Positions 4,541-31,055 of a stretch of DNA of 32,000 nt are shown here, piece after piece (the first letter of the stretch is position 1; every line of letters begins with the position of its first letter). The stretch is taken from positions 1,020,001-1,052,000 of the forward strand of contig NC_018655.1 in assembly GCF_000299365.1 (NCBI RefSeq), in the 5' to 3' direction. The notes below the pieces were generated by a model. That model did no database searches, was not told the DNA's origin, and saw only the letters and a program-made list of their open reading frames with translations. The DNA comes from Candidatus Nitrosopumilus koreensis AR1. Its GTDB lineage: Archaea; Thermoproteota; Nitrososphaeria; Nitrososphaerales; Nitrosopumilaceae. Both the position numbers and the translations under genes were made by a program.

Positions 4541-4562
4541 AAATACAGGAGAGCCGACTAGT
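4541..4562 (+). repeat. Left copy of 22-bp direct repeat (candidate attL core)
   Basis: AAATACAGGAGAGCCGACTAGT, identical to 31034-31055. It begins 19 bp after the kinase stop. Confidence 0.8.
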
Positions 4563-4662
4563 AGTCAACCATTTTAGACACTATTTTAGCCCCGTTTAGG
4601 CACAAATTATCAAAAGTTCAGTTTTCCTGTTTTCTTTATCTTATGCTTGCATTCTAGTTGAT

Positions 4663-4896
4663 TTAGTCTAGTAATTCACAGGTTATTGTTTCAATAGCCT
4701 CTTTTCTTGCTTGATCATCATTGTGCCAAACATGTTTTCCAAGACTAACCCCGTAATCTATCATAGATTGGAGTCTCAAATCACCAGTTACAAAACCATT
4801 CCAAACAGAAAGCAATCCAATTGCGACAATTCTATTTTTTGTGTTTTCTCTTGCTAGTAAACATTGATTCATAACCCATTGTTCTTTTTCGAACAT
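4663..4896 (-). CDS. Hypothetical protein (77 aa)
   Basis: ATG-initiated ORF just inside the left island end. No recognisable motif. Confidence 0.35.
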   Translation of the reverse strand: MFEKEQWVMNQCLLARENTKNRIVAIGLLSVWNGFVTGDLRLQSMIDYGVSLGKHVWHNDDQARKEAIETITCELLD

Positions 4897-5169
4897 ATAA
4901 CAAGTTTTAAAAAATGAAAAAACGAAGACTGTTTACGCACACAACGACAATAATGAAAATATGATTTGAAAAACAGTTCTTTTAAACCCGTATGAAATTA
5001 TTCTCTCATGAGTTATGAATTACCTTCTTTTATTTTGGTAATTATCCGTCTTTTTGCTACCTATAAGAAATAATTTTCTGTTTTTGAGAATTAGTTAAAA
5101 CATTATTAGTATCAAGTTTGGCTTTGCCTTTATGAATATGTGCAGATATTACTTTAAAGGAAATTAAAA

Positions 5170-6612
5170 ATGAAGAAAAAATTTCTTATTCTAATCCCAC
5201 TTGTTCTTGCAAGTTTTGTGCATTTGCTAAATCCGGTTGGGTATCCTGAGATTTTCTTTGATGAGGGAATATACATGCGACGTGCAATGACTACTATTGA
5301 AACTGGCAGCCCTCAGGAGAGTTATCTTTATGATCATCCGTATCTTGGACAGTTAATTCTTGCAGGAGTTTTGCAAATAACAAACTATCCTCCAGATGTA
5401 TCTGCTGATCCTCAATCCCTACAAAGTCTGTATCTTATCCCAAGACTGTTTATGGGAATGCTTGCAATACTGAGCACATTCTTGGTTTACCTGATTGCAA
5501 GAGAAAAATTTGGAACAAATGTTGCACTGATATCCTCTACCCTATTTGCAGTAATGCCCTACACTTGGATATTTGATAGAATCTTACTTGACTCTATACT
5601 CTTGCCGTTTTTGCTTGCATCAATACTGCTTGCTATACATTATGCAAAACCGGAAGGGAAGGTGTGGCTTGCACCTCTGTCAGGTATATTGCTTGGTCTT
5701 GCAATCTTTACAAAAATCCCTGCATTCGTGTTCATTCCACTTGTCATATGGTTGGTGTATCAAAAGAGAAGAAAATTCTCTGACATGATAATTTGGATAA
5801 TGCCTGTATTACTGATTCCGATGCTTTGGCCTGCAAATGCAATTATGCTAGATCAGTTTGATTTGTGGATAAATGATGTGTTGTGGCAAAGCCAAAGAAG
5901 TAACAGTATATTTGAAATCATTGGATATTTTCTTTACATTGATCCAGTACTGTTTGCAATTGGCATGACAGGAATTGTCTATGCTGGAATAACTAGAAAC
6001 AAGTTTGTCTTGTTTTGGTTTGTACCGTTCATGGTATTTCTGTCACTAGTTGGATTCAAGCAATACTTTCACTGGATTCCACTCATCCCGATTTTGTGCA
6101 TTGCAGCAAGCATATGGCTGCTTGATTTGCCAAAAAAGATCAAAACATTGCAATCAAAACGACTACATGGAATAGTTATTGTATCAATTCTAGTCTTTGG
6201 ATTGTCTAGCACACTTTTAGTAATCACAAATGACATGTCCATAACTCAGTTTGAAGCATTGTCTTTTGTTCTGCAAAATCAAGATGATAAAAATACAATT
6301 CTTGCTAGTCCTGTGTATACTTGGATTCTTTATGATGTATTTGATATCTCAAATGTTCCAATAGACTATTCGATGATCTTGTTTTATCCAATACCTACAA
6401 ATGTCATTACCGTAATTGCAGATGAGCACTTTATGCTAGACCGTAACAGAGGAGTAGAGATTATCCATGCTTACAACAACACTGAATCTATTCAATCATT
6501 TGAAAATGTTGCAACTGTGTTTGATAATAGGATCTATCCTTACACAAACTTGAGAGTCAACCAAGAAGGAATGCTTATTGATATTAGAGAGGGTCAATGG
6601 ATCAAACCATAG
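5170..6612 (+). CDS. GT-C fold membrane glycosyltransferase (PMT_2/ArnT-like, GT39/GT83-type)
   Basis: 480 aa with many TM helices. The first extracytoplasmic loop 'FFDEGIYMRRA' carries the acidic DE motif typical of GT-C enzymes. A soluble C-terminal ~120 aa follows. Confidence 0.7.
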   Translation: MKKKFLILIPLVLASFVHLLNPVGYPEIFFDEGIYMRRAMTTIETGSPQESYLYDHPYLGQLILAGVLQITNYPPDVSADPQSLQSLYLIPRLFMGMLAILSTFLVYLIAREKFGTNVALISSTLFAVMPYTWIFDRILLDSILLPFLLASILLAIHYAKPEGKVWLAPLSGILLGLAIFTKIPAFVFIPLVIWLVYQKRRKFSDMIIWIMPVLLIPMLWPANAIMLDQFDLWINDVLWQSQRSNSIFEIIGYFLYIDPVLFAIGMTGIVYAGITRNKFVLFWFVPFMVFLSLVGFKQYFHWIPLIPILCIAASIWLLDLPKKIKTLQSKRLHGIVIVSILVFGLSSTLLVITNDMSITQFEALSFVLQNQDDKNTILASPVYTWILYDVFDISNVPIDYSMILFYPIPTNVITVIADEHFMLDRNRGVEIIHAYNNTESIQSFENVATVFDNRIYPYTNLRVNQEGMLIDIREGQWIKP

Positions 6613-6670
6613 TCATAAAAGTAATTTTTTACATGAAACATTTTAATCCAAATCTGAGAGGAAAATTCCA

Positions 6671-7851: not shown

Positions 7852-8109
7852 TCATTTTCTTTTTCTCCGCAAAATAACTCCTGCCACAGTTACAAAGATT
7901 CCAATTATGCCACTGAGCAAAAATGTCTGTTTATACATAAACAAAACATAGTCCAATCCTTCTATCGGTTTCATTATTGGTGGCTCAACAGGTGGAAGCA
8001 AGACATATGATGAATAAATTACTGCCAAAAATCCTTCAGTCATTAATGCAATTCCGATAATTATCAAAAGTATGGATTGCAAAACAACAGTACAAGAAAT
8101 GTTTCGCAT
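7852..8109 (-). CDS. Small membrane protein ending in TM helix + RRKRK
   Basis: Hydrophobic helices at both ends, C-terminus '...IFVTVAGVILRRKRK*'. The stop TGA overlaps a vestigial ATGAAAACTAGA cassette start. Confidence 0.5.
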   Translation of the reverse strand: MRNISCTVVLQSILLIIIGIALMTEGFLAVIYSSYVLLPPVEPPIMKPIEGLDYVLFMYKQTFLLSGIIGIFVTVAGVILRRKRK

Positions 8110-8275
8110 ATAATGATTGATAAAATTTTGATTTTAGTAATACTGAAAGATTCAAAGTGGCAAGTACAGGATTTTTACAGTTTGTTTTATTTTCATGATC
8201 TTAAAATCAGATATTCACAGGTTCTTCCATACTGTTGATTTTACGCAGTTAAATAGAATACAAACCATTAGAATC

Positions 8276-8650
8276 ATGGAAGAAAATTCTCTTCGTTATT
8301 GGATTATTCCAATTATTTGTATAGTTGTAGTGATGGGGGTGTTTGTGGTTACAATGGAATACAAGATAAACACTGTTTTTCCTAATGCCGCAGCAGAATT
8401 AGAAGAGATAAAGAAAATGTCATGTCCCGAAATCATAGCAAAAGATTCTGCAAACAAATATTGGACTCCAAAAAACAGTGCAATTGGAAAAGCAAAAGCT
8501 ATTAGCTGCAGCGTTCCAGAAGAAACCAAGAGTTCTGGTCTAAGTCCATATGTTGAGTTTTGCAATCCGGGAGGATTTGCACCAAATAAAATAATTGAAA
8601 ACAGCACGCATTCGTTTAATCATGATACGTGTACATGGAATTCAAAGTAA
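8276..8650 (+). CDS. N-terminally anchored Cys-containing protein (C-terminal CxPGG...THxF...CxW motif)
   Basis: The internal ATG (MEENSLRYWIIPIICIVVVMGVFVV) gives a signal anchor. The C-terminal 'FCNPGGFAPNKIIENSTHSFNHDTCTW' is paralogous to the C-terminus of 9825..10058. Confidence 0.5.
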   Translation: MEENSLRYWIIPIICIVVVMGVFVVTMEYKINTVFPNAAAELEEIKKMSCPEIIAKDSANKYWTPKNSAIGKAKAISCSVPEETKSSGLSPYVEFCNPGGFAPNKIIENSTHSFNHDTCTWNSK

Positions 8651-8685
8651 AAATATTTTTTACAATACAAACTAGACGCTAGTTT

Positions 8686-8940
8686 TCATTTTTCTACTCT
8701 CCATAATGCGTAAAATGCTCCAACAACAATCAATGATATCCCAGTTATTGGGAGTATTGTAAATTCAGGTGCCACACCAACAGTTTCAATTTTTACCCCA
8801 TTGTCATCAATACTAGTGTAACTAACTGTCCCAGCAAAATACTCAATTGGAATATGAGTTATCTGAACAAATGCTAACCCAGAGAACCAAATCCCAATAA
8901 TTACTGTACCAATAATAATAATCATGTAAGGTGTTTTCAT
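8686..8940 (-). CDS. Small membrane protein with PEF-type C-terminal anchor
   Basis: MKTPYMIIIIGTVIIGIW signal anchor. The C-terminal 'VAPEFTILPITGISLIVVGAFYALWRVEK*' is PEF + TM + basic. The start is preceded by TAGAAAATGAAAAC, like the other cassettes. Confidence 0.55.
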   Translation of the reverse strand: MKTPYMIIIIGTVIIGIWFSGLAFVQITHIPIEYFAGTVSYTSIDDNGVKIETVGVAPEFTILPITGISLIVVGAFYALWRVEK

Positions 8941-8943
8941 TTT

Positions 8944-9462
8944 CTAATCTTGAACAATGACTTCAGTAGATATTGGAGGGGATAGCGCAGTTGGATTACC
9001 TACACTCTCCCAAGCAAAAGCTGTTATTCGATATTTTCCAGGTTCTGTAGGAAGCCAGGAGGTTTCCACAAACTTTTGTGCATAAAATTTTCCTTCACAT
9101 ATCTTATCTCCGCAAACATATGGCTCAGAATAAGTCCATTCGTTGTAGCATATTTTATCCCCACACACAAAAGAACCCGGTTGATCAGTTAATTTTTGCT
9201 GGAATCCTTCAAGCCAACTTAGCAACACAACTTGGTTTTTTTCATTAGTTATTTGATACAATATCACGTATTCAGTATTAGGAAAATTTGATTGGTAATC
9301 AGTTCGGATTGTATATTGCTGATTTGATTTTATGGGCATAGAATCATCCACCCCCTGAATTACAAGATTCTGTAAAGGTACTCTCTCCATTGGTGGTACT
9401 GCAAAAGAATCGGAACCGCCCATAATGCCAATTAAAACCAAAAGGATTACAAGATACTTCAT
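8944..9462 (-). CDS. Secreted protein, 'MKYL' leader-gene family (internal CGDKIC duplication)
   Basis: Signal peptide MKYLVILLVLIGIMGGSDSFA. 'CGDKICYNEW...CGDKICEGKF' is an internal repeat. The conserved promoter/leader block lies upstream. Confidence 0.65.
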   Translation of the reverse strand: MKYLVILLVLIGIMGGSDSFAVPPMERVPLQNLVIQGVDDSMPIKSNQQYTIRTDYQSNFPNTEYVILYQITNEKNQVVLLSWLEGFQQKLTDQPGSFVCGDKICYNEWTYSEPYVCGDKICEGKFYAQKFVETSWLPTEPGKYRITAFAWESVGNPTALSPPISTEVIVQD

Positions 9463-9483
9463 AATGTATGAAATCCTAGTCTG

Positions 9484-9505
9484 TCATTGAAAAGTGCTTC
9501 TGATG
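9484..9505 (-). promoter_or_regulatory. Conserved upstream block, copy C (CATCAGAAGCACTTTTCAATGA on the coding strand)
   Basis: Identical 22-mer at 10747-10768 and 15291-15312. Each copy ends exactly 21 nt upstream of an MKY(L/F) start codon. Confidence 0.6.
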
Positions 9506-9518
9506 ATTTACTTGTTTT

Positions 9519-9683
9519 TTATAGCCCAAAAGATTCTTCAAATGTTTGCCTTGGTTTTGGGTGTGTTTTTTTGGATTGCCTGTTTTTAATCAAGAATAAA
9601 ACAGGAAATCCTGCAATAATTGGTGAGAATCCTAACAACATGAAAAATAATGCTAGGTGTTCTGCTGAAAGCGACATAACCAT
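9519..9683 (-). CDS. Possible small membrane protein (54 aa, below the track cutoff)
   Basis: My translation of the minus strand is MVMSLSAEHLALFFMLLGFSPIIAGFPVLFLIKNRQSKKTHPKPRQTFEESFGL*. That is a hydrophobic helix plus a basic tail, co-oriented with its neighbours. It is antisense to track ORF 9487..9705. Confidence 0.3.
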   Translation of the reverse strand: MVMSLSAEHLALFFMLLGFSPIIAGFPVLFLIKNRQSKKTHPKPRQTFEESFGL

Positions 9684-9824
9684 ACAGAACAAGAGCAGTT
9701 CATAAAATATTCTATTCTAGACACTATTAGATGACTGCAAAATTTGCAAGTAAAAAAACATGACTGCAATCCTTGAAAAATAATTTACAAATTTCTGAAA
9801 TTTTTTATAATATAATTTTCCAGT

Positions 9825-10058
9825 TTAATTTTTCAAGATCCACATACAATTTCCAAGATCAAATTCATGGGTTTGATTTTGTATTAATATTGATGGGACA
9901 ATTTTATCAGGTCCACCAGGAATACAATTTTTTACAAATCTATTATTGTGTGCATCTTCATTTTGTTGTTTGTTTTCCAAATAATCGATTGTAAAATATG
10001 TTGAGCTAACAACTATTAAAATTCCAATTCCAATTATTATCAAAAGTCTAGTTTTCAT
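9825..10058 (-). CDS. MKTR-cassette protein (77 aa), N-terminal anchor, C-terminal CxPGG...THxF...CxW motif
   Basis: The start is ATGAAAACTAGA (MKTRLLIIIGIGILIV), 2 nt after the stop of 10060..10725. The C-terminus is 'NCIPGGPDKIVPSILIQNQTHEFDLGNCMW'. Confidence 0.55.
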   Translation of the reverse strand: MKTRLLIIIGIGILIVVSSTYFTIDYLENKQQNEDAHNNRFVKNCIPGGPDKIVPSILIQNQTHEFDLGNCMWILKN

Positions 10059-10059
10059 T

Positions 10060-10725
10060 TTATTTTCCAAATATCCATGAAATCAAATTGTCAAGATATG
10101 CAAAAATTCCAAAGAATGGGGCATCAGAGCCAACTTTGTCTGTTTTTATTGCTTGGCATATCCCGTCTACCAAAACAGTTCCTTTGCCGCATATATCATT
10201 ATCAACAAACTTATCTGATTCATTTAGATTCATATTTTTCAAAACAGAAAGATTGCGCCCATTAACAGAACAAATATCTCTTTGTACTCCTTTGCCTTCT
10301 TTGCAAATAATCTCCTTGACTACCTGTGAATCCCCTAATCTGATTATCAAATCAGTATCTGCATATCCATGAGTATTTTTTTGAAGATATAGCAAAACCA
10401 CTTGATCCTGCAGGTATGGCTGAGTTGCGTAACTCATTCCATGAGGTTCTCTTGTGAATAATCCCGTAACTGTTACTGTTTGATTATAACTGGATGTTTT
10501 GAAATATTTTTCAGCTTCAATTTCATACATGACAACCCCCAATCTCTCTGTGGAAGTGTTTTCTGTTTTTGTAACCTCTGGCTCAGATAAGATTTCTACT
10601 GATATGACTTTGCCAACTAGAACTATATCTGAATAATCAAATGCGTGTGATGGGTCTAATTGCGGAACAGCGTAAGATATGCTGGTAAAACTGGCAATAA
10701 TTAGTAGAATTACAAGATACTTCAT
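10060..10725 (-). CDS. Secreted protein, 'MKYL' leader-gene family
   Basis: Signal peptide MKYLVILLIIASFTSISYA. The conserved promoter/leader block lies upstream. Confidence 0.65.
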   Translation of the reverse strand: MKYLVILLIIASFTSISYAVPQLDPSHAFDYSDIVLVGKVISVEILSEPEVTKTENTSTERLGVVMYEIEAEKYFKTSSYNQTVTVTGLFTREPHGMSYATQPYLQDQVVLLYLQKNTHGYADTDLIIRLGDSQVVKEIICKEGKGVQRDICSVNGRNLSVLKNMNLNESDKFVDNDICGKGTVLVDGICQAIKTDKVGSDAPFFGIFAYLDNLISWIFGK

Positions 10726-10746
10726 ACTGTATGAAGTCTTATTTTA

Positions 10747-10768
10747 TCATTGAAAAGTGCTTCTGATG
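10747..10768 (-). promoter_or_regulatory. Conserved upstream block, copy B
   Basis: Same 22-mer, ending 21 nt upstream of the ATG at 10725. Confidence 0.6.
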
Positions 10769-10778
10769 TTTTGTATCT

Positions 10779-11330
10779 TTAGTTTTGTTTTCCAAGCAGA
10801 TGTTCCATATCGACAGTTACATCTTTTTCGTTTAACATGGTTATCTGATGCTCAATCTCTGCACGAGTTTCATTGCCATACGAAATCAAAATCCGATCCC
10901 CATCGCTTACGTCATAGTCTGAAACATCATCTATCATATTGTCGTTTACAAAATACTTTAGAGAATATCTTTCATCTGTACAATAACTAGTGCCATTTGT
11001 AATTGCAATGCATTTTTCATCAAGTTTAAAATTCAACGTTTCAAACAGATAGCCAACCGTAACCCTATCGCCATGAATGTGTATGACATCATCATAGGGC
11101 GACTGGAAATTTATCCAATAACTTACTTGTTGGTATTGGGGGTCGTTTAGATCAAACTTTTCGCCATGGATCATGAACAGTATTCCTGCATGTTGGTGTA
11201 CTTTGTTTATTATTGGAGGAGCAAACAGTGACTCTGATTCCTGATTATTCTTGATCATTAACAATAACACACCAATTATAATTACCATAACTACAATTAT
11301 TCCAATAATTATCAGAAATCTAGTTTTCAT
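10779..11330 (-). CDS. MKTR-cassette protein with His-rich motifs (HQH...HIHGD)
   Basis: MKTRFLIIIGIIVVMVIIIGVLLL anchor, with 'VHQHAGILFMIHGEKFDL' and 'VIHIHGDRVTVGYLF'. This could be a metal site, which is inference only. Confidence 0.6.
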   Translation of the reverse strand: MKTRFLIIIGIIVVMVIIIGVLLLMIKNNQESESLFAPPIINKVHQHAGILFMIHGEKFDLNDPQYQQVSYWINFQSPYDDVIHIHGDRVTVGYLFETLNFKLDEKCIAITNGTSYCTDERYSLKYFVNDNMIDDVSDYDVSDGDRILISYGNETRAEIEHQITMLNEKDVTVDMEHLLGKQN

Positions 11331-11336
11331 TTTCTA

Positions 11337-11783
11337 TCAGTTAATCTTGTCCCAATTGAGAATTAGAAAAACAGCATCTTCATACTTGTACAGATTTGTT
11401 GACTTGTCTTCCACCCATTTGTTATAGTGATCAAGTTCAGATGGAGACATTCCAACTCGGATATTATACTCATTAGGAGTTATTCGTACTTCATATTTTT
11501 CATTAGTTGAATCTTGATGGATGACGTATTCATGATCACCATTATTTTCAACAGTAAGTAAAACATCCATCATGTATTTTATTTTTGGAACGTCGTCATA
11601 GTCGGTCTCTTGCATTTGGTAAACAGGATATTTGTCTAGAAATGGAGCATACATTTCTGGATCATCTGAATACATCAGTCCCATTCCTTCATTGTATGAA
11701 GGAACGTATGTGGAAAAATAAAAGACCATAAAGCCCAGAACAATTCCAAGCAATGTAAAGGTAATCAGCGTTCTAGTTTTCAT
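11337..11783 (-). CDS. MKTR-cassette protein (148 aa)
   Basis: The start ATGAAAACTAGA at 11783 (MKTRTLITFTLLGIVLGF) overlaps the ...GAAAACTAG end of the upstream gene. The track's longer 11337..11930 N-terminus is read-through of that overlap. Confidence 0.6.
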   Translation of the reverse strand: MKTRTLITFTLLGIVLGFMVFYFSTYVPSYNEGMGLMYSDDPEMYAPFLDKYPVYQMQETDYDDVPKIKYMMDVLLTVENNGDHEYVIHQDSTNEKYEVRITPNEYNIRVGMSPSELDHYNKWVEDKSTNLYKYEDAVFLILNWDKIN

Positions 11784-12222
11784 TTTCTTTTTTTCCACAT
11801 ATTTTGCATTTGTAATCGCCAAGATCAGAATCAGACTCGTTTGTTTTTCTAGTTTGATCTTTTGAAATAAATTCAAACTCTTCAGATCCACAGAAATTGC
11901 ATTTCCTTGGATGGTATTCCAAGTTTTCAAACTCTTTTTTCTTTTTCAAATATTCTTCTTTGGTGATTTTTTCTTCAATGTATTTTTTTTCTAATATTCT
12001 CAATGCCTCATCGTTTTGTTCTTTTTCATATTCGTTGATTGGATCAATTCGTCTATAATTCAGAAGAGAGTCTTTATCTCTAAAAGCATGTTTTTTTGTA
12101 TACCATAAAATTGCTCCAGCAGATACAATTCCCAAAATCAACCCATATGGAAATGGCATGACTGTTTGAATCAAAAAGAAAACAACAATTGCAGATATTA
12201 TTCCAATGAAGATGGATTTCAT
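11773..12222 (-). CDS. Membrane protein with SHOCT-like helix and C-terminal zinc ribbon
   Basis: The ATG at 12222 (MKSIFIGIISAIVVFF) shares an ATGA overlap with the upstream stop. There are two TM helices. 'ALRILEKKYIEEKITKEEYLKKKKEF' is SHOCT-like. 'CNFC...CKIC' is a zinc ribbon. Confidence 0.55.
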   Translation of the reverse strand: MKSIFIGIISAIVVFFLIQTVMPFPYGLILGIVSAGAILWYTKKHAFRDKDSLLNYRRIDPINEYEKEQNDEALRILEKKYIEEKITKEEYLKKKKEFENLEYHPRKCNFCGSEEFEFISKDQTRKTNESDSDLGDYKCKICGKKENEN

Positions 12223-12953
12223 TTTCGTTTCCACCAATAGATAATTCCAACAATAAAAGACACGCCAAGACTGCTAGCAAGAACTGCCAAAAACACATCC
12301 TCTGAGCTAGTTTTAGATGCCAAAATATTTGGACCATGCATTATGTTCCTAGGCTGACATAGTGCTTGCCCATTTTCACACATTTCATCTAACTGGTTAG
12401 TAGGAAGTGAACGTTTAGACTCTGGTGATGGCATTATCACCCAAGTGTTTTCAGGTAATGGAATTATGTCTGGATTGTATTTCAGGTATATGTCCATAGA
12501 TTCATCAAATCTTTTAATCTCAGATTCATCAACATAATCAAAAGAAATTTTGACTTTCATGTCAGGAGGTAAAGAATTCCTCATGCTAATCGAGGGATGA
12601 ATCTGCAAGGTGTCTTGAATTGCATTGTCTTGATAAAACCCCCAACCACCTATGAAATCTTTAGATGATTGTATTGCATAGTTTTCCCAATCTAGATGAA
12701 TTCCTAGTTTTCTAACGTCATCTTCGTTTAAATCCAAATCATCAACTGCCCTACAAAAAATATTGCCAGGAGTTGCACTACCATCATATCTTGGACTCCA
12801 AAGAGTACGACAGATTTCTAAAAGTTCATCAGGAGTACATGATTCATCAGCAGTTCCCACTTGTTTGTCACAACTAGCATCTGCATTAAGAAAAACAAAT
12901 GGAGCTAATGTGACTCCAATGATGCCAAGCATTATCAAAATTCTAGTTTTCAT
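12219..12953 (-). CDS. MKTR-cassette secreted protein with C-terminal TM + WKRK anchor
   Basis: MKTRILIMLGIIGVTLAPFVFLNADA|SC signal. The C-terminus is 'VFLAVLASSLGVSFIVGIIYWWKRK*'. ATGA overlaps at both ends. Confidence 0.65.
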   Translation of the reverse strand: MKTRILIMLGIIGVTLAPFVFLNADASCDKQVGTADESCTPDELLEICRTLWSPRYDGSATPGNIFCRAVDDLDLNEDDVRKLGIHLDWENYAIQSSKDFIGGWGFYQDNAIQDTLQIHPSISMRNSLPPDMKVKISFDYVDESEIKRFDESMDIYLKYNPDIIPLPENTWVIMPSPESKRSLPTNQLDEMCENGQALCQPRNIMHGPNILASKTSSEDVFLAVLASSLGVSFIVGIIYWWKRK

Positions 12954-13489
12954 TTTCTTCTCCAAAAAAACACCAAACCGACTCCAATTCCAACTCCAGA
13001 TAAAATTCCAAGAATTATTACATACATGTTAAAATCAGGATCAATTCCAAGACCTCCAAGTTCTACTTTATTTGAAGCCAGTTGATATCGTTCATCATCA
13101 GTATATGGGTCATGATCTGTTGAACTTTCATTAATCATGAATTCTTCAAATTGCCCAAAATATTCACCCGTGTTGGGAGCTCTTCCAGAAAAAAAATAAT
13201 ATTCATACACGTTTCTGTTCTGAATTGATTCATCTACCCATTCTTGCAGAGTGTTTTCATTGATTGCCTTTTCAAGTTCAATGCGTTTTTGTTCCATGAA
13301 TTCAGTGCCTTTGAAAGAGTAGTATTGACTCCATTTGTTTACTTCTCCTTGATCATATTTTCCATTTCCAATAGAATCAAGGCATGGAGCATCTGGCCAG
13401 TCTTCGTTTACTATGCAAGATGCAAAAGAATATGGAATTGACAAAAACAGTCCAAAGATTACAAATATTATCAAGAGTCTAGTTTTCAT
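12950..13489 (-). CDS. MKTR-cassette secreted protein with C-terminal TM + WRRK anchor
   Basis: MKTRLLIIFVIFGLFLSIPYSFA|SC signal. The C-terminus is 'DPDFNMYVIILGILSGVGIGVGLVFFWRRK*'. Confidence 0.65.
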   Translation of the reverse strand: MKTRLLIIFVIFGLFLSIPYSFASCIVNEDWPDAPCLDSIGNGKYDQGEVNKWSQYYSFKGTEFMEQKRIELEKAINENTLQEWVDESIQNRNVYEYYFFSGRAPNTGEYFGQFEEFMINESSTDHDPYTDDERYQLASNKVELGGLGIDPDFNMYVIILGILSGVGIGVGLVFFWRRK

Positions 13490-15269: not shown

Positions 15270-15290
15270 ACTGTATGAAAATTCATCACA

Positions 15291-22140: not shown

Positions 22141-22236
22141 TTAGGAGATTTCCTTTCCACATTTACTTGAACATATTTTTTCAAACAAGCTGACAAACTC
22201 TCGTCCACAATGAATACATTTTTTGAGAATTTTCAT
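22141..22236 (-). CDS. Possible 31-aa zinc-ribbon micro-protein
   Basis: My translation is MKILKKCIHCGREFVSLFEKICSSKCGKEIS*. Its ATG overlaps the TAA of the upstream micro-ORF by 1 nt. Confidence 0.3.
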   Translation of the reverse strand: MKILKKCIHCGREFVSLFEKICSSKCGKEIS

Positions 22237-22373
22237 TAGTTATGAAACAGCTCCACAAAGTCGCAGGAATTGCAAAACTTTGCTTGGATCTTTCTCCAAG
22301 GCTGTCGTGCATGGATAGAGACATTCGTGTCACTTGTGTGAATTAGGTTTGAACACTTTGGACATGATTCCAT
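22236..22373 (-). CDS. Possible 45-aa zinc-ribbon micro-protein
   Basis: My translation is MESCPKCSNLIHTSDTNVSIHARQPWRKIQAKFCNSCDFVELFHN*, with CPKC...CNSC. Confidence 0.3.
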   Translation of the reverse strand: MESCPKCSNLIHTSDTNVSIHARQPWRKIQAKFCNSCDFVELFHN

Positions 22374-22508
22374 GTTCTTAGTTATTGCACAATGATATTA
22401 CAAGTGGTAAACAACACAGTTGCTTTGTCATAAGACAAGCTGACAGACTTGGCTACAATTTTTCAAAACATAATACATAATTAACTAACAATTATTGTAA
22501 AGAAGCAA

Positions 22509-23042
22509 TTGAGCACTGAACAAAAAAAGAAAACAGAGACAATGTCGTTTAGGTTAGACAGTCAGATCTTAGGTAAATTACGAGCAGAGTCAGAATCTCA
22601 AGGGGTCAGTTTGAATACATTGGCAAGTAAGATCTTTTCAAGATATGTAGATTGGGGCATGTTTGAGCCTAAAGTAGGAATGGTGCCAATAGCAAAACCC
22701 ATTGTAACTGCATTATTTCAAAAACTTTCAGAACAAGAGACTATTGATCTTGCAAAACAAATTGGCAAAAGTATCGTGTCAGATATAGCCACATTCATGA
22801 AAGGCTCATTTGATCTAGACTCATTTGTATCATGGTTTATCACGAGAATGAAAATATCTGATTTTGAGTTGAACCACACGATAAATAATTCAAAACACAG
22901 TTTCATAATAAAACATGACTTGGGATACAACTGGTCACTGTATCACAAAACAGTACTGGAATTAATTTTCAATGAGGCATTTGAGAAAAAAATTGATTTT
23001 GAGATAAAAGATAGAATGATGGAATTAAGTTTTGAGAAATAA
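22509..23042 (+). CDS. Ribbon-helix-helix (CopG/Arc-like) N-terminal domain protein
   Basis: 'MSFRLDSQILGKLRAESESQGVSLNTLASKIFSRYVDW' has a strand-helix-helix pattern. The likely true start is the ATG at 22542. The C-terminal ~130 aa are unknown. Confidence 0.55.
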   Translation: MSTEQKKKTETMSFRLDSQILGKLRAESESQGVSLNTLASKIFSRYVDWGMFEPKVGMVPIAKPIVTALFQKLSEQETIDLAKQIGKSIVSDIATFMKGSFDLDSFVSWFITRMKISDFELNHTINNSKHSFIIKHDLGYNWSLYHKTVLELIFNEAFEKKIDFEIKDRMMELSFEK

Positions 23043-24404
23043 TCAAACAGCCTTGATTGTTCCAGTCATCCATGGATGAAGCATACAGTAGTATTCATAC
23101 AAACCCACACTTTCAAATGTCTGCTCAAATGCATCACCAGGCATCATCATGCCAGAATCAAACAATTCATCATTGCTTGTCACAGTATGAACTGAGATGT
23201 CCTTGTTTGTCCACGTGACAGTATCACCTTTCTGAATCTGTGTCAATTTAGGATAGTATGACTTGTTTGAAGATTTTATCGCAGAACCTTCTTCTACTTC
23301 ACAAAGAGTGGTTTCAACTATCTGGGATTCATCGGTATTCTGTGCAAATGTGAGATGTTCTTCATGACTAGATGTACTTGCAGCAGTTTTTGTGATTTCT
23401 GCAGATTTGTCAGGAGATTCCAGTTCTGTGAAAACTTGTTTTTGCCAATCCCACATATCAATGGATTTAGTTCTTGCAACATCAACACCATCTATTGCAT
23501 CAGATGAGGCATCTCTTACATCAAAGTAAGCCATAGTGCCCTTTTCTTCAGGGACACCATGCAAATGGAAGAGATACCTTCCAGGTTCTTTCCATGTAGC
23601 TTCAAAGATTGCAGCATTTCCAGGACCGACCTCCCATGTCTGTGTCTTGATAGGTTCATTTTCCCAGATTCCAGAAACTATAGTATCAAATATTGTACCA
23701 TGAATGTGGAACCCAAATGCAGGGATTGCACCCATATCTACATAATACAATCGGACTAATTCACCAGTTTTTGCAGGCAATGGATTTGTCCAGTATTGAT
23801 CAGCATATCCGTTAAAGAAAACATAATCAGGCGTCCATGTCTCCTGATCTTCCAAATCGTATTCACCTTTGACAAGAACATATTCCCTTGCAGGTTCTAC
23901 TCCTTCTCTAGGATCTACAATGAATGCACCATACAATCCATTTCTAACATGTTCAGACACTGGCATAACATGACAATGGTACATGAAAACCCCTGCAGGT
24001 TCTGCTATGAAATCATACGTGTAAGACTCACCAGGAAGAACTTCTTGAAACACTCCATCATTTTTCTCATTATGATCACCATGAAAATGCATCGTATGTG
24101 GAAGTTTTCCGTTATTGATAAAATTGATAATCACCCTGTCTCCTTCAGTTGCACGTAACGTAGGACCAGGAATTGTTCCGTTATATGTCCAAGCTTCAAC
24201 TCTAACACCTGGAGAAATCTCCAACGTTGTATCTTCAGCAATCACAGTGAATGTTCTTGTAATTGGAGAGCTGTGGACAGAGGGGTCTTGAGCGAATGAT
24301 TGCAAAGGCAATTCGGAATCTAAGAAGAAAACACCTAATGTTACTCCGAGAGATATAACGCCGATGAGCATGATCGTTGTTCTGTCCACGAAACACAATA
24401 TCAC
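23043..24404 (-). CDS. Two-domain multicopper oxidase with fused C-terminal plastocyanin-like domain, paralog 2
   Basis: 'HTMHFHGDH', 'MYHCHVMPVSEHVRNGLYG', 'FHIHGT', 'LFHLHGVPEEKGTM', and C-terminal 'SVHTVT...YYCMLHPWMTG'. The track start is GTG; an alternative ATG is at 24371 (MLIGVISLG). Confidence 0.85.
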   Translation of the reverse strand: MILCFVDRTTIMLIGVISLGVTLGVFFLDSELPLQSFAQDPSVHSSPITRTFTVIAEDTTLEISPGVRVEAWTYNGTIPGPTLRATEGDRVIINFINNGKLPHTMHFHGDHNEKNDGVFQEVLPGESYTYDFIAEPAGVFMYHCHVMPVSEHVRNGLYGAFIVDPREGVEPAREYVLVKGEYDLEDQETWTPDYVFFNGYADQYWTNPLPAKTGELVRLYYVDMGAIPAFGFHIHGTIFDTIVSGIWENEPIKTQTWEVGPGNAAIFEATWKEPGRYLFHLHGVPEEKGTMAYFDVRDASSDAIDGVDVARTKSIDMWDWQKQVFTELESPDKSAEITKTAASTSSHEEHLTFAQNTDESQIVETTLCEVEEGSAIKSSNKSYYPKLTQIQKGDTVTWTNKDISVHTVTSNDELFDSGMMMPGDAFEQTFESVGLYEYYCMLHPWMTGTIKAV

Positions 24405-25390: not shown

Positions 25391-25520
25391 GAATTAGTGA
25401 AAAAAGTGAAAAAGCGTGAAAAAAGCGTGAAAATCAGGTAGTGTTCTATGTTAATTCACGTTTTTCACATTTCACAAAAATTTCCTATAATATAGGGGGG
25501 TTTTGTGAAAATAGTGACAA
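25391..25520. repeat. GTGAAAA iteron-like array (4 direct, 3 inverted, 2 direct copies)
   Basis: GTGAAAA starts at 25397, 25406, 25416 and 25427 (9-11 bp spacing). Inverted TTCAC/TTTTCAC copies lie at 25455-25475. GTGAAAA at 25505 and GTGACA at 25514. The palindrome CCTATA-A-TATAGG lies at 25484-25496. Confidence 0.6.
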
Positions 25521-26142: not shown

Positions 26143-28074
26143 TCATTTTAATTCGGATTTAGTACTTATCCAATCTAAAGGAATTAGTTTTTCCCCATTT
26201 CGCCATCTCTCTCTAATACATGATTGGAATTTTGTATCAGCAGGTTCTGCATGTTCTGTTATGATGACTTGCAATTGCCCTTTTGATTCCTCTACAGTGT
26301 TAAAAATCAAATTAAAGACTCTTGCTAATGATTTTTCATCATCACTACTGAGTTGTTTGGTTTTTACTGATTTGTCTTGTGGATAATAAACCTGAGATGG
26401 TTGATCAAAAATAATGAATCTGGGAACGGGTCTTGAATGTTTTCTAAAAAACTGATGTAGAGCTAAATGTGTAATTATATGATACCCCATCCAATTTTTC
26501 CCACTTCCCGTATTTCTCAATGAAATTGGATTGCCATCTCTTTCTATAATTAGAGTCAATTTGTTTAAATCAAGTTTTATAGGGTATTCTGAATGTTCTA
26601 ATTCTAATTCTCGTGACCACTCTGTCATGAGATCGCTAATTTCATTCAGCGCTTTTTTCGTTTTACGTTCAATTAGACTATCATCAAGAATCTTCTCAAT
26701 TTCCTCAATTTTTGTTTTTGTTTTTATGGTGTTTTTTAATCCTAAATTCTCATCTGATGCATCCACATTTTCTAACCAGAATTTGATTTTTCCAATAATT
26801 TCAGATTTCATCATTTGAATATTTCTTAAATCCTGTTCTTTTTGATGGTACTTTAAAATTGAATTAATTTGTGTGAGCAATTGATTTCTGTCAAAAATTA
26901 TTTTTTCACGTTTATCTTCTAATGAATTCAGATATTTTTGAATATGGGGTTTTTCTTTTTGTGTCCCTTCAAGAGATTTTGCTAAATCTTGAATTGAATT
27001 GTTGATTGAATTAACTTGAGAAATTTTTGTTTTTAGTTCACTTTCACATAATGGACACACAGTAGAATCATGTTTCAATATGTCAAAAAGTCCTAAAGTA
27101 TCTAAGCGTTGTTTTTGAAATTCCATTTCTGTAGCATATGATGCAATCTCCTCATGAGCTTTTTTTAGGTCACTAATTTTTTCATCTAGATAAGATAATT
27201 CCTTATCTGTTTTTTTGATCTTTTCTTGTAATTCAAACAGTCGGCTATCTTTAGGTAAATCTAACGACTCAATTTGAGATTTAGCTGCTTTTTCAAGAAT
27301 TTTTTGATTGTGTTTTATGTCTCCTAATTGGGTATTTGAAGGAATAAGCCCATATTCTTTGGCCTCTGCAATTAATCCAATAGTTTTTGATATGCCTTCT
27401 CCACGAATTGACGCATATTCTTTTTCCTCTTGTTCTAATCTAAACAACTCTCTTCTAATTTTCATTAATTCAAATTCCAACATCATTAGATTGTCTGGAA
27501 TTGCTCCAAGAAAATATGGGGTTACCACGGATAATGTTTTAGGAATCCATTCTTCATCTTGTCTATGGAATAAAATTTTCTTTGAAGCTATTTCTGACTG
27601 ATATTGAAAACAAAATAATGAACTATGGTTAAAATTTACAGAAATTGGGACATTCATATTTTTTGAGATAGAAAGTTTTAGTTCAGAGGGAATACCTATC
27701 TCTGAAGTTAGTTTGTTGCGAACTACATCTGTTGTGATATTTTCATGAGGGGTTTTAGAAGGAGATGTTAATTTTGCATTTTTTTCAAAATATGCTTTTG
27801 TAGATGAATTTTTTCCAGGATTGGGATTTTTACGAGCAATGAAAATTCTTTCATTTTTCATTTGAAGCAGTACTCCATACCAATCAACAGTTTCTCTAAT
27901 TGGGCCTGCAGGAATTGTACATGTGTCGCTTCCAAAACAATATTCAAGTATATCTACTAAAGATGATTTTCCAGTTGTCGAATCTCCAGTGATGATGTTT
28001 GTTGCCCCTAAATGAAATTCTACTTTTCTAATTTTTCCATTTTTTCCATATAGAACAATTTCTTTTATTTGCAT
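26143..28074 (-). CDS. ABC-3C system ATPase: coiled-coil SMC/Rad50-like ABC ATPase (DUF3732-type)
   Basis: Walker A 'ITGDSTTGKSS'. A long charged coiled-coil insert has a central 'CPLC'. 'NTGSGKNW' is signature-like. Walker B/D-loop is 'RFIIFDQPS'. H-loop is 'VIITEHA'. Confidence 0.8.
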   Translation of the reverse strand: MQIKEIVLYGKNGKIRKVEFHLGATNIITGDSTTGKSSLVDILEYCFGSDTCTIPAGPIRETVDWYGVLLQMKNERIFIARKNPNPGKNSSTKAYFEKNAKLTSPSKTPHENITTDVVRNKLTSEIGIPSELKLSISKNMNVPISVNFNHSSLFCFQYQSEIASKKILFHRQDEEWIPKTLSVVTPYFLGAIPDNLMMLEFELMKIRRELFRLEQEEKEYASIRGEGISKTIGLIAEAKEYGLIPSNTQLGDIKHNQKILEKAAKSQIESLDLPKDSRLFELQEKIKKTDKELSYLDEKISDLKKAHEEIASYATEMEFQKQRLDTLGLFDILKHDSTVCPLCESELKTKISQVNSINNSIQDLAKSLEGTQKEKPHIQKYLNSLEDKREKIIFDRNQLLTQINSILKYHQKEQDLRNIQMMKSEIIGKIKFWLENVDASDENLGLKNTIKTKTKIEEIEKILDDSLIERKTKKALNEISDLMTEWSRELELEHSEYPIKLDLNKLTLIIERDGNPISLRNTGSGKNWMGYHIITHLALHQFFRKHSRPVPRFIIFDQPSQVYYPQDKSVKTKQLSSDDEKSLARVFNLIFNTVEESKGQLQVIITEHAEPADTKFQSCIRERWRNGEKLIPLDWISTKSELK

Positions 28075-28562
28075 TATGGTTTTACTCCCAATGATGAATA
28101 AATTGATTCAATTTTTCTCGTTTTTGCAAACCAGCGTCCTATAGTTTCAGCTTTTTTAAAACATTCAGTTTTTTCATCATGTACATCATCTATGGTGTCG
28201 TTAATTTGATAATTCAAGACAGTTATTGACGCGTTATTATCTAATGAAATTTGATTTTGTTCTAACAAAAACCAAAATGAATTTTTTGTTACAGGAACCA
28301 AATCTTTTGCAATTTTATGAAAATGTATCAAAATTTCTGAATTCATATTTAACCAATTTGAGAAATTTTGACGTGAACCATATTCAATTTTTTCCCTAGT
28401 TTCTTTATGCAAAACTAACGGAAGTATTAGGAATAAGAGTGGAAAAGGCATGGGTCTGGTGGAATATTTTGTATATTTTTTGACACATCTGCGCAAAATT
28501 TCTGCACAGAACGCAGGATTAAAGAGATTGAAAATCTCTCGTGATTCATTCGTTTGATTCAT
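28074..28562 (-). CDS. ABC-3C middle component
   Basis: 162 aa. 'FNPAFCAEILRRCV...MPFPLLFLILPLVLHKETR' resembles the ABC-three-component middle-component families. TAATG overlap with the ATPase start and a 17-nt overlap with the effector end. Confidence 0.6.
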   Translation of the reverse strand: MNQTNESREIFNLFNPAFCAEILRRCVKKYTKYSTRPMPFPLLFLILPLVLHKETREKIEYGSRQNFSNWLNMNSEILIHFHKIAKDLVPVTKNSFWFLLEQNQISLDNNASITVLNYQINDTIDDVHDEKTECFKKAETIGRWFAKTRKIESIYSSLGVKP

Positions 28563-29181
28563 TTTTATCCATTTTCGAAATTTTAGTTTTGTAATCTGGA
28601 TGCCATCCTATTTCTTCTTTATCCGACAGTATCTGAAAAGTGCCACGTCTAACAAAAGGAGATTTACATAATGGTCTTATACACAATGCATCAGTTCCAT
28701 AGTTTGCCCATTGAAGTAATTCTCTACCCCGAGATTTTTTGGTATTGTCATGGGAATTATTATCTAAAGATTCTTCCATCTCGTCAAATCTTCGTTCCCA
28801 TTCTGTTCTCAATAAATTATCAAATTTTTTTAATTCATCAAAGAATATCAATTCATTTCTAATCCACTTTGATCTATGCTCACTAGCAAGGTAGAAGTCA
28901 CTCTTGCAATGTCTTTTCGTGTTATCGCCTACAGAAATCCAATCTAATTGTTTTACAAAAGTTCTGTCATCATTAGGCAAATCTTTATCAGATATGGCTG
29001 ATTCGTCAAAATAAATTGGTAAATTATCATTAGTGTATTTTCTAGATATGTCTAAAATTTTTTCTCTAACTTCATTTTTAGATATATTTCTAGATATTTG
29101 CCCCGTCAATCTAAGCAAAACTTCTCCCCACCACCAACCAAGTAATTCATCATACAAATCATTAATTCGGTTAGGAATCAC
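28546..29181 (-). CDS. C-terminal part of the ABC-3C effector (ABC-3C C-terminal domain)
   Basis: 'FVKQLDWISV...ASEHRSKWIRNELIFFDELKKFDNLLRTEWERRF...RRGTFQILSDKEEIGWHPDY'. The track start is GTG. The frame continues upstream after correction of a homopolymer. Confidence 0.65.
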   Translation of the reverse strand: MIPNRINDLYDELLGWWWGEVLLRLTGQISRNISKNEVREKILDISRKYTNDNLPIYFDESAISDKDLPNDDRTFVKQLDWISVGDNTKRHCKSDFYLASEHRSKWIRNELIFFDELKKFDNLLRTEWERRFDEMEESLDNNSHDNTKKSRGRELLQWANYGTDALCIRPLCKSPFVRRGTFQILSDKEEIGWHPDYKTKISKMDKNESNE

Positions 29182-29326
29182 ACTATAATCAAGACTTGAA
29201 ATAATTGCTTTTTTATTTCATTAATTTTTGGGTATGTGTCTATGATGTAGATGTTATCTAATAGACTAAATTTTTGATAATCATCTAGCTTGTTAAATTT
29301 ATCATAATGCTTTTCATGAGAAACAT

Positions 29327-29761
29327 CTATTTTTTTCGCGATTTCATTAATTTTTTTAAAACTGATGCAGTGTCTCTGTTTTCAGGACGTAAGTTAGTTA
29401 AGACTGAAGAATCAGAAATTTTTTGCGTAGTGATTATCATCAACATTGTGTCTTGTGGTCTCAGTTTTTTTTCAAAATATGCTTCACTCCAATTTCCCAA
29501 GGTGTTCCAAAAATCTGTACTGGAATTGGTCAATTTCCCTTTGTCATCCTTGTGGTGTTTGGTTTCTATCCCAACAATAATTTGTTCATCTTTTATGAGG
29601 GACACATCATCAAATTTTTCCAAAGCAATTTCAGTATTTTCGTTACTTTTCAACAATAAAGACAATGCAAAATATGCCTCGTAAACATACCCTACAAAGG
29701 AATCACTTGCGTCAATTTTTTTCATTGTTTGCATGCTATCATATTCATAAAATAATTGCAA
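29327..29761 (-). CDS. N-terminal part of the ABC-3C effector: Cap4/DUF4297-like PD-(D/E)xK nuclease domain
   Basis: 'FVGYVYEAYFALSLLL...IALEKFDDVSLI...IVGIETKHH...LTNSSTDFWNTLGNW' shows the D...ExK restriction-endonuclease-fold signature. The ORF ends at an A7 run. Confidence 0.65.
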   Translation of the reverse strand: MQLFYEYDSMQTMKKIDASDSFVGYVYEAYFALSLLLKSNENTEIALEKFDDVSLIKDEQIIVGIETKHHKDDKGKLTNSSTDFWNTLGNWSEAYFEKKLRPQDTMLMIITTQKISDSSVLTNLRPENRDTASVLKKLMKSRKK

Positions 29762-29821
29762 GTACTTTAACTTGATTGCATCTCAATCTTAGTGTTTTAT
29801 GTAGAGACTTTAACCAATTCG

Positions 29822-29844
29822 AAAATTCTCCTTAAGAGAATTTT
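29822..29844. promoter_or_regulatory. Inverted repeat AAAATTCTC-cttaa-GAGAATTTT between the integrase 3' end and the ABC-3C operon start
   Basis: 9-bp perfect arms with a 5-nt spacer. It lies 61 bp upstream of the effector start and 12 bp downstream of the integrase stop. Confidence 0.4.
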
Positions 29845-29855
29845 AAATACAATTT

Positions 29856-30998
29856 TTATTTTTGATTTTTATTTTCTTGTCTTGCAATCCAGTTCAAAAT
29901 TTTCTCATTATCTTCTTTGATTTGTTCAAGTTCAGTTTTTTCTGATTTTAATTTCTCGTTTTCAACACGCATTCTTTCATCATCAGATATAGTCAACAAT
30001 GGAATTGCCTTTTGATATTCAGAAAATCTCTCAAAATCATCTTCCTGATATCGCTCATAGTGAGATTCCAAGCCTACTTTATGACCCATCATATCCTCTT
30101 TATCCAAAAAATTTACCTTGGCACGTCTCATCATGGTGTTAAAATATTTTCGAAGACCATGTGCTAGCATAACCTTGTGGCGTTTCTTACCGGGTTCTAA
30201 CGGAGGTCTCAATCCAGCCTTTTTAGCAAGTGTGTTCATTCTTGATTCCATACCTCTTTTGCCTATTCGTTTAGGATCATGAATCCTAACTGAAATAACA
30301 AGAGGTTCAGAGTCTTTAGGATATCTCATGAATCTAGATTTCCAATATTCTTTGTACAGTTGCAGATACTTTCCAGCTTCTGGTGTAAAGTGAGTCCAGT
30401 ACTCTTCATTATCACCATGATAAACTCTCAGAGCACCGCCTTTCAATGAATTATCATCATTGTAAAAGAACAAGACATCTTCCCACGTGAAATAGTCCCA
30501 TGCCTCAATTCTAAATCCTGCTGAAGAAGAAAGCGTTATCATGATTTTATCAACAAGGTTTGTGGCATTTGCCATTAACATTTGAAGTTGTTCTCTAGAG
30601 TATGCCATGTCTTTTGACTTGCCGGGTTTTGGAATGGATTTTCCTATCATCTTCCATGAAAAGTCAATATCGTTTGCAGCAAACAATGCCTTGATTGGTT
30701 TGATTAAATTCAAAACTCTTGCAGGAGAAATCTCTTTAGAATCTACTTTCTTTTTTAATTCTCTAACATATGCATTGATAATTGATTTGCCTATCTTTAC
30801 ATCGTCTCTAACAAGAGCAACAAAGGCTTCTGTTTTGTCAGTAGTGTCAATCTTTTTTTCTTCAAAAATCTTGTCTGGAATTAAATCAAGAAACTTTTGT
30901 AGATCATTTGTGTATTTTTTGCGAGTTTTTTCATTTCTGATATAATCTAAAAAATTCTGAAAAGCAGACGATTTTACATCAGAAATATCTAATTTCAT
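29856..30998 (-). CDS. Tyrosine recombinase / phage-type integrase
   Basis: 'SSAGFRIEAWDYFTW' (Arg I region), 'LAHGLRKYF' (HxxR), 'MMGHKV' and 'SHYERY' (Tyr). The ATG at 30998 (MKLDISDVKS) is preferred because the track start at 31094 runs through the att repeat. Confidence 0.85.
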   Translation of the reverse strand: MKLDISDVKSSAFQNFLDYIRNEKTRKKYTNDLQKFLDLIPDKIFEEKKIDTTDKTEAFVALVRDDVKIGKSIINAYVRELKKKVDSKEISPARVLNLIKPIKALFAANDIDFSWKMIGKSIPKPGKSKDMAYSREQLQMLMANATNLVDKIMITLSSSAGFRIEAWDYFTWEDVLFFYNDDNSLKGGALRVYHGDNEEYWTHFTPEAGKYLQLYKEYWKSRFMRYPKDSEPLVISVRIHDPKRIGKRGMESRMNTLAKKAGLRPPLEPGKKRHKVMLAHGLRKYFNTMMRRAKVNFLDKEDMMGHKVGLESHYERYQEDDFERFSEYQKAIPLLTISDDERMRVENEKLKSEKTELEQIKEDNEKILNWIARQENKNQK

Positions 30999-31033
30999 AC
31001 ATTCTATAGAACTTGGGGCTATTTTAGTAAGTA

Positions 31034-31055
31034 AAATACAGGAGAGCCGACTAGT
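31034..31055 (+). repeat. Right copy of 22-bp direct repeat (candidate attR core)
   Basis: AAATACAGGAGAGCCGACTAGT, identical to 4541-4562. It lies 36 bp upstream of the integrase ATG. Confidence 0.8.

Follow-up and report, generated by a model that had tools for sequence, protein, structure and literature searches.

Elements that integrate into the 3' ends of tRNA, tmRNA or small-RNA genes include the pNOB8-type elements of archaea, bacterial islands at ssrA and those of the Salmonella ryeA/ryeB hot spot. For the Thaumarchaeota, integrated elements were catalogued in 'Integrated mobile genetic elements in Thaumarchaeota' (Krupovic et al. 2019, Environ Microbiol 21:2056; PMC6563490), which is the source of the element NitKor-E3 of Candidatus Nitrosopumilus koreensis AR1, a marine archaeon that oxidises ammonia. 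We analysed a stretch of 32,000 nucleotides of the AR1 genome (NC_018655, positions 1,020,001 to 1,052,000; hereafter the window, in which a genome coordinate equals the window coordinate plus 1,020,000). Positions 4541..31055 of the window (26,514 bp) are NitKor-E3, and with a probability of roughly 90% we read them as a cryptic integrated element (CIE), that is a genomic island, which inserted site-specifically at the 3' end of a conserved block located after the permease gene tauE.

The published record of NitKor-E3 is confined to supplementary Tables S1 and S2, and the main text of the 2019 paper does not discuss the element. Table S2 gives its position as NC_018655 1024541-1051055, with a length of 26514 bp, class IE, the attachment site (att) AAATACAGGAGAGCCGACTAGT and the target label 'intergenic', and the gene table lists 31 genes (NKOR.06150-06300), with which the open reading frames (ORFs) found here agree. 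Borders, att, genes, class and target label are all the same in our analysis, and because the published borders are identical the finding is correct but already known. An initial annotation of the window, made from its letters, had called thaumarchaeal integrative elements poorly catalogued; this was wrong for NitKor-E3, which the thaumarchaeal mobilome catalogue has held since 2019, and the claim to novelty falls, as the element itself adds nothing new. The published record shows no empty site, does not remark on the structured nature of the target and labels the genes of a Lamassu defence system only as an SbcC-like ATPase and hypothetical proteins. Beyond it, the present analysis contributes the RNA-like target, matched empty and occupied sites in nature, the variable cargo found with the same integrase and att, and the naming of the Lamassu genes, an added value that we grade as moderate.

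The 22-bp sequence AAATACAGGAGAGCCGACTAGT is present in exactly two copies in the window, both on the plus strand, at 4541-4562 (attL, an exact match identical to the published NitKor-E3 att) and at 31034-31055 (attR); no third copy was detected in the window even at three mismatches, and 100 dinucleotide-preserving shuffles contained no occurrence. The stop codon of a histidine kinase gene (4520-4522) lies 19 bp before the left copy. The right copy is 36 bp from the integrase ATG at 30998 and 82 bp from the tauE stop codon, which begins at 31137. The exact repeats, their distances from the three genes, the negligible likelihood of a chance 22-mer identity and the tyrosine recombinase immediately inside the right copy had all been pointed out in the initial annotation, and each of these statements was borne out.

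The integrase gene (29856..30998, minus strand) is intact and encodes a tyrosine recombinase of 380 amino acids that is 100% identical to AFS81141 of AR1. It matched Pfam PF00589 at 33.9 bits (cutoff 27.1) and the PHROG integrase family at 1.1e-09. The catalytic-type residues R163, H280, R283 and Y314/Y317 are invariant across 22 integrase homologues, and the first arginine aligns with that of P. abyssi XerA in a weak match (E = 0.027). A longer ORF starting from 31094 reads through att, the real start of the integrase being at 30998. A split integrase of the SSV type was considered and rejected, as the ORF from 31094 merely crosses att and, in the reconstructed circular junction, the integrase frame hits a stop codon just beyond att. 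The integrase ORF at 29856-30998 is unsplit and att is located outside it, 36 bp upstream, as is characteristic of the pNOB8 type.

Both repeats adjoin conserved sequence on the side of the element. Inside attL, approximately 40 nt (...GGGGCTRAAWTAGTGTGCAAAAAGGTTGACT, followed by att) are common to five independent attL junctions, namely those of the window, L018, L020, L021 and L024 (alignment A3), and the sequences diverge further inside. In the window this distal end of the element, or P' arm, occupies 4563..4603 (minus strand), with ...GCCTAnnnGGGGCTAAAATAGTGTCTAAAATGGTTGACT directly beside att, and its conservation identifies the left border at 4563 as a genuine element end and not a chance repeat. 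At the other end, the integrase-proximal P arm consists of the 20 nt TTACTTACTAAAATAGCCCC (31014..31033, minus strand) between att and the integrase start codon; it is nearly fully conserved in six independent attR junctions (alignment A4), with the variable positions inside TTACTTAC, and it holds the TATA-like sequence TAAAATAG 21-28 nt upstream of the integrase ATG. The motif GGGGCTAWWWTAG is found in both arms, in inverted orientation. The integrase or an accessory protein may bind at both, and the proximal arm could also serve as a TATA-like promoter element of the integrase gene. The reconstructed attP junction reads ...GGGGCTATTTTAGTAAGT-att-AGTCAACCATTTTAG... and the reconstructed attB junction ...TTTTAAAAT-att-CTCCCCCGCCC...; in other host lineages the identity stretches to ~34 bp, through TTACTTACTAAA.

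Integrases with 73-90% identity to that of NitKor-E3 are located directly after tauE and att at six other loci, two in Nitrosopumilus genomes (L004 and L005) and four on metagenome contigs (L011, L014, L015 and L027). The cargo seen in L004, L005 and L011/L014 is unrelated; the contigs of L015 and L027 end shortly past the integrase. More distant homologues, with 62% and 57% identity, occupy other loci that do not have the att motif, and site specificity therefore tracks the integrase clade. Integrase homologues 52-62% identical were seen at other loci in L032, L033, L035 and L036, one beside an HNH gene and one beside a ParE toxin gene. A search of IMG/VR gave no match to the exact 22-mer or to the degenerate att pattern, and with the integrase profile it returned relatives at 52-53% only; two of the homologue loci come from IMG/VR contigs with a viral prediction, and viruses may therefore be among the carriers of this wider family of integrases.

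Matched empty and occupied sites were identified among metagenome contigs. L018, which contains an element end, att and flank, and L025, which contains tauE, att and the same flank, are 98.1% identical over 1939 bp from the first base of att, and the comparisons L018/L017 (92% identity) and L020/L017 (87%) have the same breakpoint. In addition, tauE and the block are present without an integrase, so that the site is empty, in N. maritimus SCM1, N. sediminis AR2, N. oxyclinae and two further genomes (the loci beyond SCM1 and AR2 being L029, L030 and L031). The order tauE, a gene for 150 amino acids, adh_short is common to AR2, L029 and L030 and is probably ancestral, and the flank of attL in AR1, TGTATTTATTTTAAAATTTTTGG, resembles the native flank of L030, TGTATTTTATTTTAAAATTTTATC. 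The matched sites, together with at least three unrelated sets of cargo behind the same integrase and att, mark the site as a hot spot of active insertion in wild populations of Nitrosopumilus. An integrated element bounded by att and equipped with its own tyrosine recombinase, as the initial annotation had proposed, is thus supported by the match to NitKor-E3, by its recurrence, by the conserved arms and by the pairs of empty and occupied sites.

The site also varies where no integrase is found. In SCM1 (L007 8880-13800) approximately 5 kb right after the block, absent from AR2, L029 and L030 (comparison with L010, L029 and L030), encode a 916-aa NHL/fn3 protein, a Cache-HAMP-PAS kinase and a response regulator, possibly a decayed older insertion. 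In the metagenomes, the att motif matched 17 contigs, 16 of which contain tauE and the block, or element ends with the conserved arm. A match to the att pattern in L013 (1992-2012 in minus-strand numbering; ACTAGTCGGCTCCCCTGTATT) has no tauE, no RNA 5' half and no element arm, and is either an unrelated chance match or a different type of junction.

The target had been described as intergenic and not an obvious tRNA, which is literally true but incomplete, as att forms the 3' end of a conserved, covarying block of two hairpins (31034..31086, minus strand) downstream of tauE, a candidate small RNA of ~52 nt. About 70 nt after tauE are near-invariant at all loci and read, on the tauE strand, TTTATA-N23-C-R-UCAGGUCUUAUGAUCUGA-GG-GCGGGGGAGACUAGUCGGCUCUCCUGU-AUUUU. 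The block is always found 60-80 bp after the tauE stop codon on the same strand, and in SCM1, where the base of hairpin 1 is at ~8826 of locus L007, it includes GUCAGGUCUUAUGAUCUGAGGGCGGGGGAGACUAGUCGGCUCUCCUGUAUUUU. The 22 bp of att are the last 22 nt of the block and comprise the apical loop, the 3' strand of hairpin 2 and the U-tail, which is also what the attR copy contains. Because att is the 3' end of the block, the element brings a replacement 3' end, and the block is intact at attR.

Folding of 14 distinct sequences (alignment A1) with RNAalifold resulted in two adjacent hairpins with 19 pairs. Every one of the 266 cells in this alignment holds a standard pair, and in five pairs both partners have changed, as in UC/GA, CU/AG and UU/AA at the base of hairpin 1. 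The covariation score was reached by 0 of 500 shuffles; in slid-partner controls pairing fell to 35-53%. Three invariant G-U pairs indicate that the structure is specific to one strand. The minimum free energy of the tauE-sense strand is -23.1 kcal/mol (z -3.6), that of the complement -9.9 (z -1.5). A covariance model identified one full copy in each of 19 tauE loci, three of them outside the seed alignment, and none elsewhere in 291 kb. Upstream of the hairpins, at 31110..31115 (minus strand), is TTTATA, a sequence resembling the archaeal TATA box, ~26 nt from the base of hairpin 1; all 14 sequences have it unchanged, and L030 has TTTAATA instead. At the base of hairpin 1 (window ~31085) a C that never varies precedes a purine, which fits a pyrimidine/purine initiator. 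Judged by what is generally known of archaeal promoters, TTTATA would serve as one.

No tRNA was detected by ARAGORN in the window or in eight related loci, Rfam gave no family at gathering score in the window and no match for the block, and the literature searched contains no mention of a described Nitrosopumilus small RNA or transcript at the tauE locus. A tRNA, a C/D-box RNA and an H/ACA RNA were rejected as identities of the target, with no support from ARAGORN or Rfam and no box motifs by eye. A conserved micro-ORF in the block was likewise rejected, its ATG being lost in L012 and L026, as was membership in the class of elements that target tRNA genes, since att overlaps no tRNA or tmRNA gene by ARAGORN or Rfam. 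It is about as likely as not that attB, in NitKor-E3 and its relatives alike, forms the 3' end of a small RNA gene of ~52 nt, with two hairpins and its own TATA box, that occurs throughout the genus Nitrosopumilus but is absent from annotations and from Rfam.

We propose that a circular form with attP would recombine with the chromosomal attB by means of the tyrosine recombinase of the element, within the 22-bp identity, and that this segment would thereby be duplicated to give attL and attR. The integrase gene would stay intact beside attR, in the manner of pNOB8 and not of SSV. In this scheme attB would be the 3'-terminal 22 nt of the two-hairpin block, most likely a small RNA gene of ~52 nt, and the element-borne copy of this 3' end would keep the block whole at attR, as it does when the 3' end of a tRNA gene is targeted.

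Several observations weigh against an insertion of this kind in AR1. The search for an empty site in relatives, as suggested in the initial annotation, yielded the pairs of empty and occupied sites of the element family and the five empty genomes, but the site specific to AR1, in which the block and tauE would come straight after the kinase, was not found in the GTDB genome scan or in the kinase protein search. The kinase has no close relative, its best orthologue being 69% identical, and a 67% orthologue is located elsewhere and not beside tauE; when the GTDB genomes were scanned with the kinase, the only matches were a 45% relative in a metagenome-assembled genome (MAG) of Nitrosarchaeum and two distant ones, with no synteny and no empty site. 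The left flank of AR1, with genes for USP, SNF, MscS, a Na/H exchanger and ParB_N, shows no synteny with the sequence beyond tauE in either SCM1 or AR2. Composition does not set the element apart either: its tetranucleotide correlation with the host is 0.71-0.83, against 0.77-0.83 for host with host, and the proposed comparison of GC and tetranucleotide content was uninformative, as the element could not be distinguished from ~14 kb of host DNA. With respect to the target, nine of the 14 distinct sequences in A1 came from a scan that required ACTAGTCGGCTC (the loop and 3' strand), so that the apparent invariance is inflated. In three genomes sampled later by tauE, outside A1, pairing is kept and the loop varies in two (ACGAGT in L029 and L030). 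Finally, in a Pfam scan of ORFs of at least 80 amino acids and in PHROGs no replication or transfer gene was recognised in the element, which makes its current autonomy doubtful.

The GTDB species representatives contained no 100% match to the AR1 kinase, and AR1 is apparently outside the scanned set or the stretch is masked. A draft of the same organism, L028, matches positions 1-11140 of the window at 100% identity.

The identity of the target leaves room for another explanation. The block could be a structured 3' untranslated region (UTR) or terminator of the tauE mRNA, or a protein-binding DNA site, and the element would then use a conserved host landing pad; this is a tentative alternative, to which we give somewhat less credence than to a small RNA. 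Its fixed place 60-80 bp past the tauE stop codon, on the same strand, is as expected for a 3' UTR or a DNA site, and the U-run at its end is what any archaeal terminator would have. A 3' UTR does not account well for the T-runs and the TTTATA, invariant in the 14 sequences, that lie between the tauE stop codon and the block, and the spacing of ~26 nt from TTTATA to the invariant C-purine fits a separate promoter; for a DNA site, the invariant G-U pairs and the energy asymmetry between the strands are out of place, as they point to RNA. Hairpins are not known to be required for termination in archaea, which tells against a terminator. That the block is a small RNA gene separate from the tauE 3' UTR is in our estimate an evenly balanced proposition, favoured by TTTATA ~26 nt upstream and by the invariant pyrimidine-purine step at the base of hairpin 1.

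The extent of the element can be questioned on other grounds. The 26.5 kb could be a composite, in which the integrase, the Lamassu genes and the neighbouring small genes (~26-31 kb) were the original mobile element and the host-like genes at 4.6-24.4 kb are chromosomal DNA or older islands accreted at the hot spot, so that the whole may no longer move as one. The Lamassu module indeed has a GC content of 0.306, compared with 0.34-0.37 elsewhere, and the lowest tetranucleotide correlation; the cargo looks chromosomal, and a MAG of Nitrosarchaeum encodes a homologue 77% identical to its helix-turn-helix (HTH) regulator; and species differ in what follows the block, with the extra ~5 kb in SCM1. 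A composite is nevertheless unlikely, given that the distal arm just inside attL is common to four other elements and marks the left border as a genuine element end, that no internal copy resembling att exists at up to three mismatches, and that multicopper oxidases, which are part of the cargo at issue, are common in thaumarchaeal integrated elements (PMC6563490). Almost no weight can be given to the reading that the two 22-mers have nothing to do with recombination and are alike by chance or as copies of a repeat dispersed in the genome. We found no point in its support, and the data already contradict it: the shuffles gave no match, the covariance model places a single copy per tauE locus only, and 16 of the 17 metagenome contigs turned out to be tauE with the block or element ends with the conserved arm, so that the dispersed repeat which the initial annotation had named as grounds for abandoning its proposal did not materialise.

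The cargo of NitKor-E3 is accessory in character, as had been stated, with host-like genes for glycosyltransferases, secreted proteins, a sensor and regulator, a hemerythrin and two multicopper oxidases, and with a Lamassu system. The last of these adjoins the integrase. The initial annotation had seen it as a defence operon, the published annotation could not name it, and PADLOC and Pfam now identify it as Lamassu (ABC-3C). All three genes are on the minus strand and in one operon: LmuB, an SMC/ABC-like ATPase (26143..28074; PADLOC LmuB 1.6e-130, Pfam DUF3732 8.6e-55); LmuC, the ABC-3C middle component MC3 (28074..28562; Pfam MC3 1.2e-48, PADLOC LmuC 3e-20); and the effector LmuA, with a Cap4-type nuclease N-terminus and a CTD7 C-terminus (28546..29761; PADLOC 1.3e-25 and 3.5e-23, Pfam Cap4_nuclease and CTD7). 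The effector ORF is not intact. LmuA is read in three frames, the frame shifting twice, at poly-A runs near 29324-29361 and 29203-29219, and its two ORFs match positions 4-129 and 187-370 of one PADLOC LmuA model of 373 positions. Either the Lamassu system is inactive or the assembly has homopolymer errors. Compared with other Lamassu/ABC-3C systems on mobile elements, the same three components are present in canonical order, and the difference is the interruption of LmuA as assembled here.

At the other end of the element, two genes on the plus strand encode a PMT_2-family glycosyltransferase (5170-6612; Pfam PF13231, 1.6e-14) and a GT2 glycosyltransferase with a GtrA transmembrane domain (6671-7816; PF00535, 1.5e-33, and PF04138, 6.5e-24). 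They are followed on the minus strand (7852..16569) by ~15 small and medium proteins predicted from N-terminal hydrophobic leaders in their translations to be secreted or membrane-located, with no Pfam or PHROG family found for this block, the proteins of which are mostly without known family. Repeat families D1-D4 cover gene starts in the block. Between 7833 and 15322 the secreted-protein genes have repeated 5' ends and MKTR/MKYLVILL leaders; an upstream block of 91 nt, 74-77% identical, is common to three of them (9425-9515, 10688-10778 and 15232-15322), and further repeated 5' segments are located at 10020-10061, 11292-11333, 12915-12956 and 13451-13492. This suggests that the small secreted proteins are a paralogous family with a common promoter or leader.

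Three further minus-strand genes, assigned by Pfam, encode a Cache-HAMP-cyclase-like sensor (16763-18475), a winged HTH regulator (18545-19345) and a hemerythrin-domain protein (19403-19945). The Nitrosarchaeum homologue of the regulator (L001 1844-2644) is located beside histidine kinases, which indicates that cargo has been exchanged between genera, with chromosomal DNA or with other islands. Within 20239..24404 are two multicopper oxidase-plastocyanin fusion genes (20239-21573 and 23043-24404, minus strand; Pfam Cu-oxidase_3, Cu-oxidase_2 and Copper-bind), with an RHH/CopG-like gene between them (22509-23042, plus strand). The duplicated copper oxidases of the initial annotation are accordingly two multicopper oxidase genes, but at 44% identity they are paralogues and not the product of a recent duplication. 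Its iteron-like region corresponds to a cluster of ~9 GTGAA(A) motifs in both orientations in ORF-poor DNA (25397..25517). Four tandem units at a spacing of 9-11 bp are followed by inverted copies around a TATAATATAGGGGGG centre, and three of the eight exact matches to GTGAAAAA in the window fall within a span of 27 bp in the cluster. GTGAA(A) is not significantly enriched across the window and is clustered only here; a role as origin or operator would be a guess.

The Pfam and PHROG searches recognised no capsid, terminase or other virion hallmark of a provirus, the only PHROG matches being the integrase and a weak zinc-finger, and Pfam recognised no VirB4/VirD4-type ATPase of an integrative-conjugative element in ORFs of at least 80 amino acids. 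The gene content agrees with the published class of cryptic integrated element.

The element is flanked on the left by the gene of a PorA-like sensor histidine kinase (3027..4522, plus strand; Pfam) and on the right by the tauE/safE-family permease gene (31137..31923, minus strand). An A7 run at 4407-4413 shifts the frame of the kinase gene: read without a break, its ORF stops at 4427, the stop codon at 4520-4522 is reached only in the frame after the shift, and the GTGLGL box of the ATPase domain continues in this second frame, orthologues being of ~495 amino acids. The permease is encoded by two ORFs, split at an A9 run at 31553-31561, which match positions 1-112 and 120-237 of the Pfam TauE profile; it is intact, with 253-257 amino acids, in relatives. 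The 32 kb thus contain four frame changes, all at poly-A runs (4407-4413, 29203-29219, 29324-29361 and 31553-31561), which break up three genes, those of the histidine kinase and of LmuA (at two places) and the highly conserved tauE. Such a pattern points to homopolymer errors in the sequence assembled for AR1 more than to pseudogenes. Of the four sites, the draft GCA_000328925.1 covers the one in the kinase alone, where it is identical.

If the block is a small RNA gene, at least part of the 'intergenic' integration sites of Thaumarchaeota would follow the logic of tRNA targeting, and the att sites of integrases could lead to the discovery of further non-coding RNAs in archaea. The block is a candidate small RNA in globally important nitrifiers, the non-coding RNAs of which are almost unstudied.

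With the thaumarchaeal CIEs (PMC6563490) NitKor-E3 has in common a tyrosine integrase, a short att and accessory or auxiliary metabolic cargo that includes multicopper oxidases. The CIEs detailed in that paper encode a protein for replication, be it MCM, Cdc6/Orc1, primpol or a rolling-circle Rep, none of which was recognised in NitKor-E3. Its target differs from those of elements that insert into RNA genes in being neither tRNA nor tmRNA and in having no Rfam entry. In other respects NitKor-E3 is like these elements: att covers the 3' portion of a structured RNA-like gene for which a replacement 3' end is supplied, the stretch of identity begins within a hairpin loop, and an intact integrase gene lies beside att.

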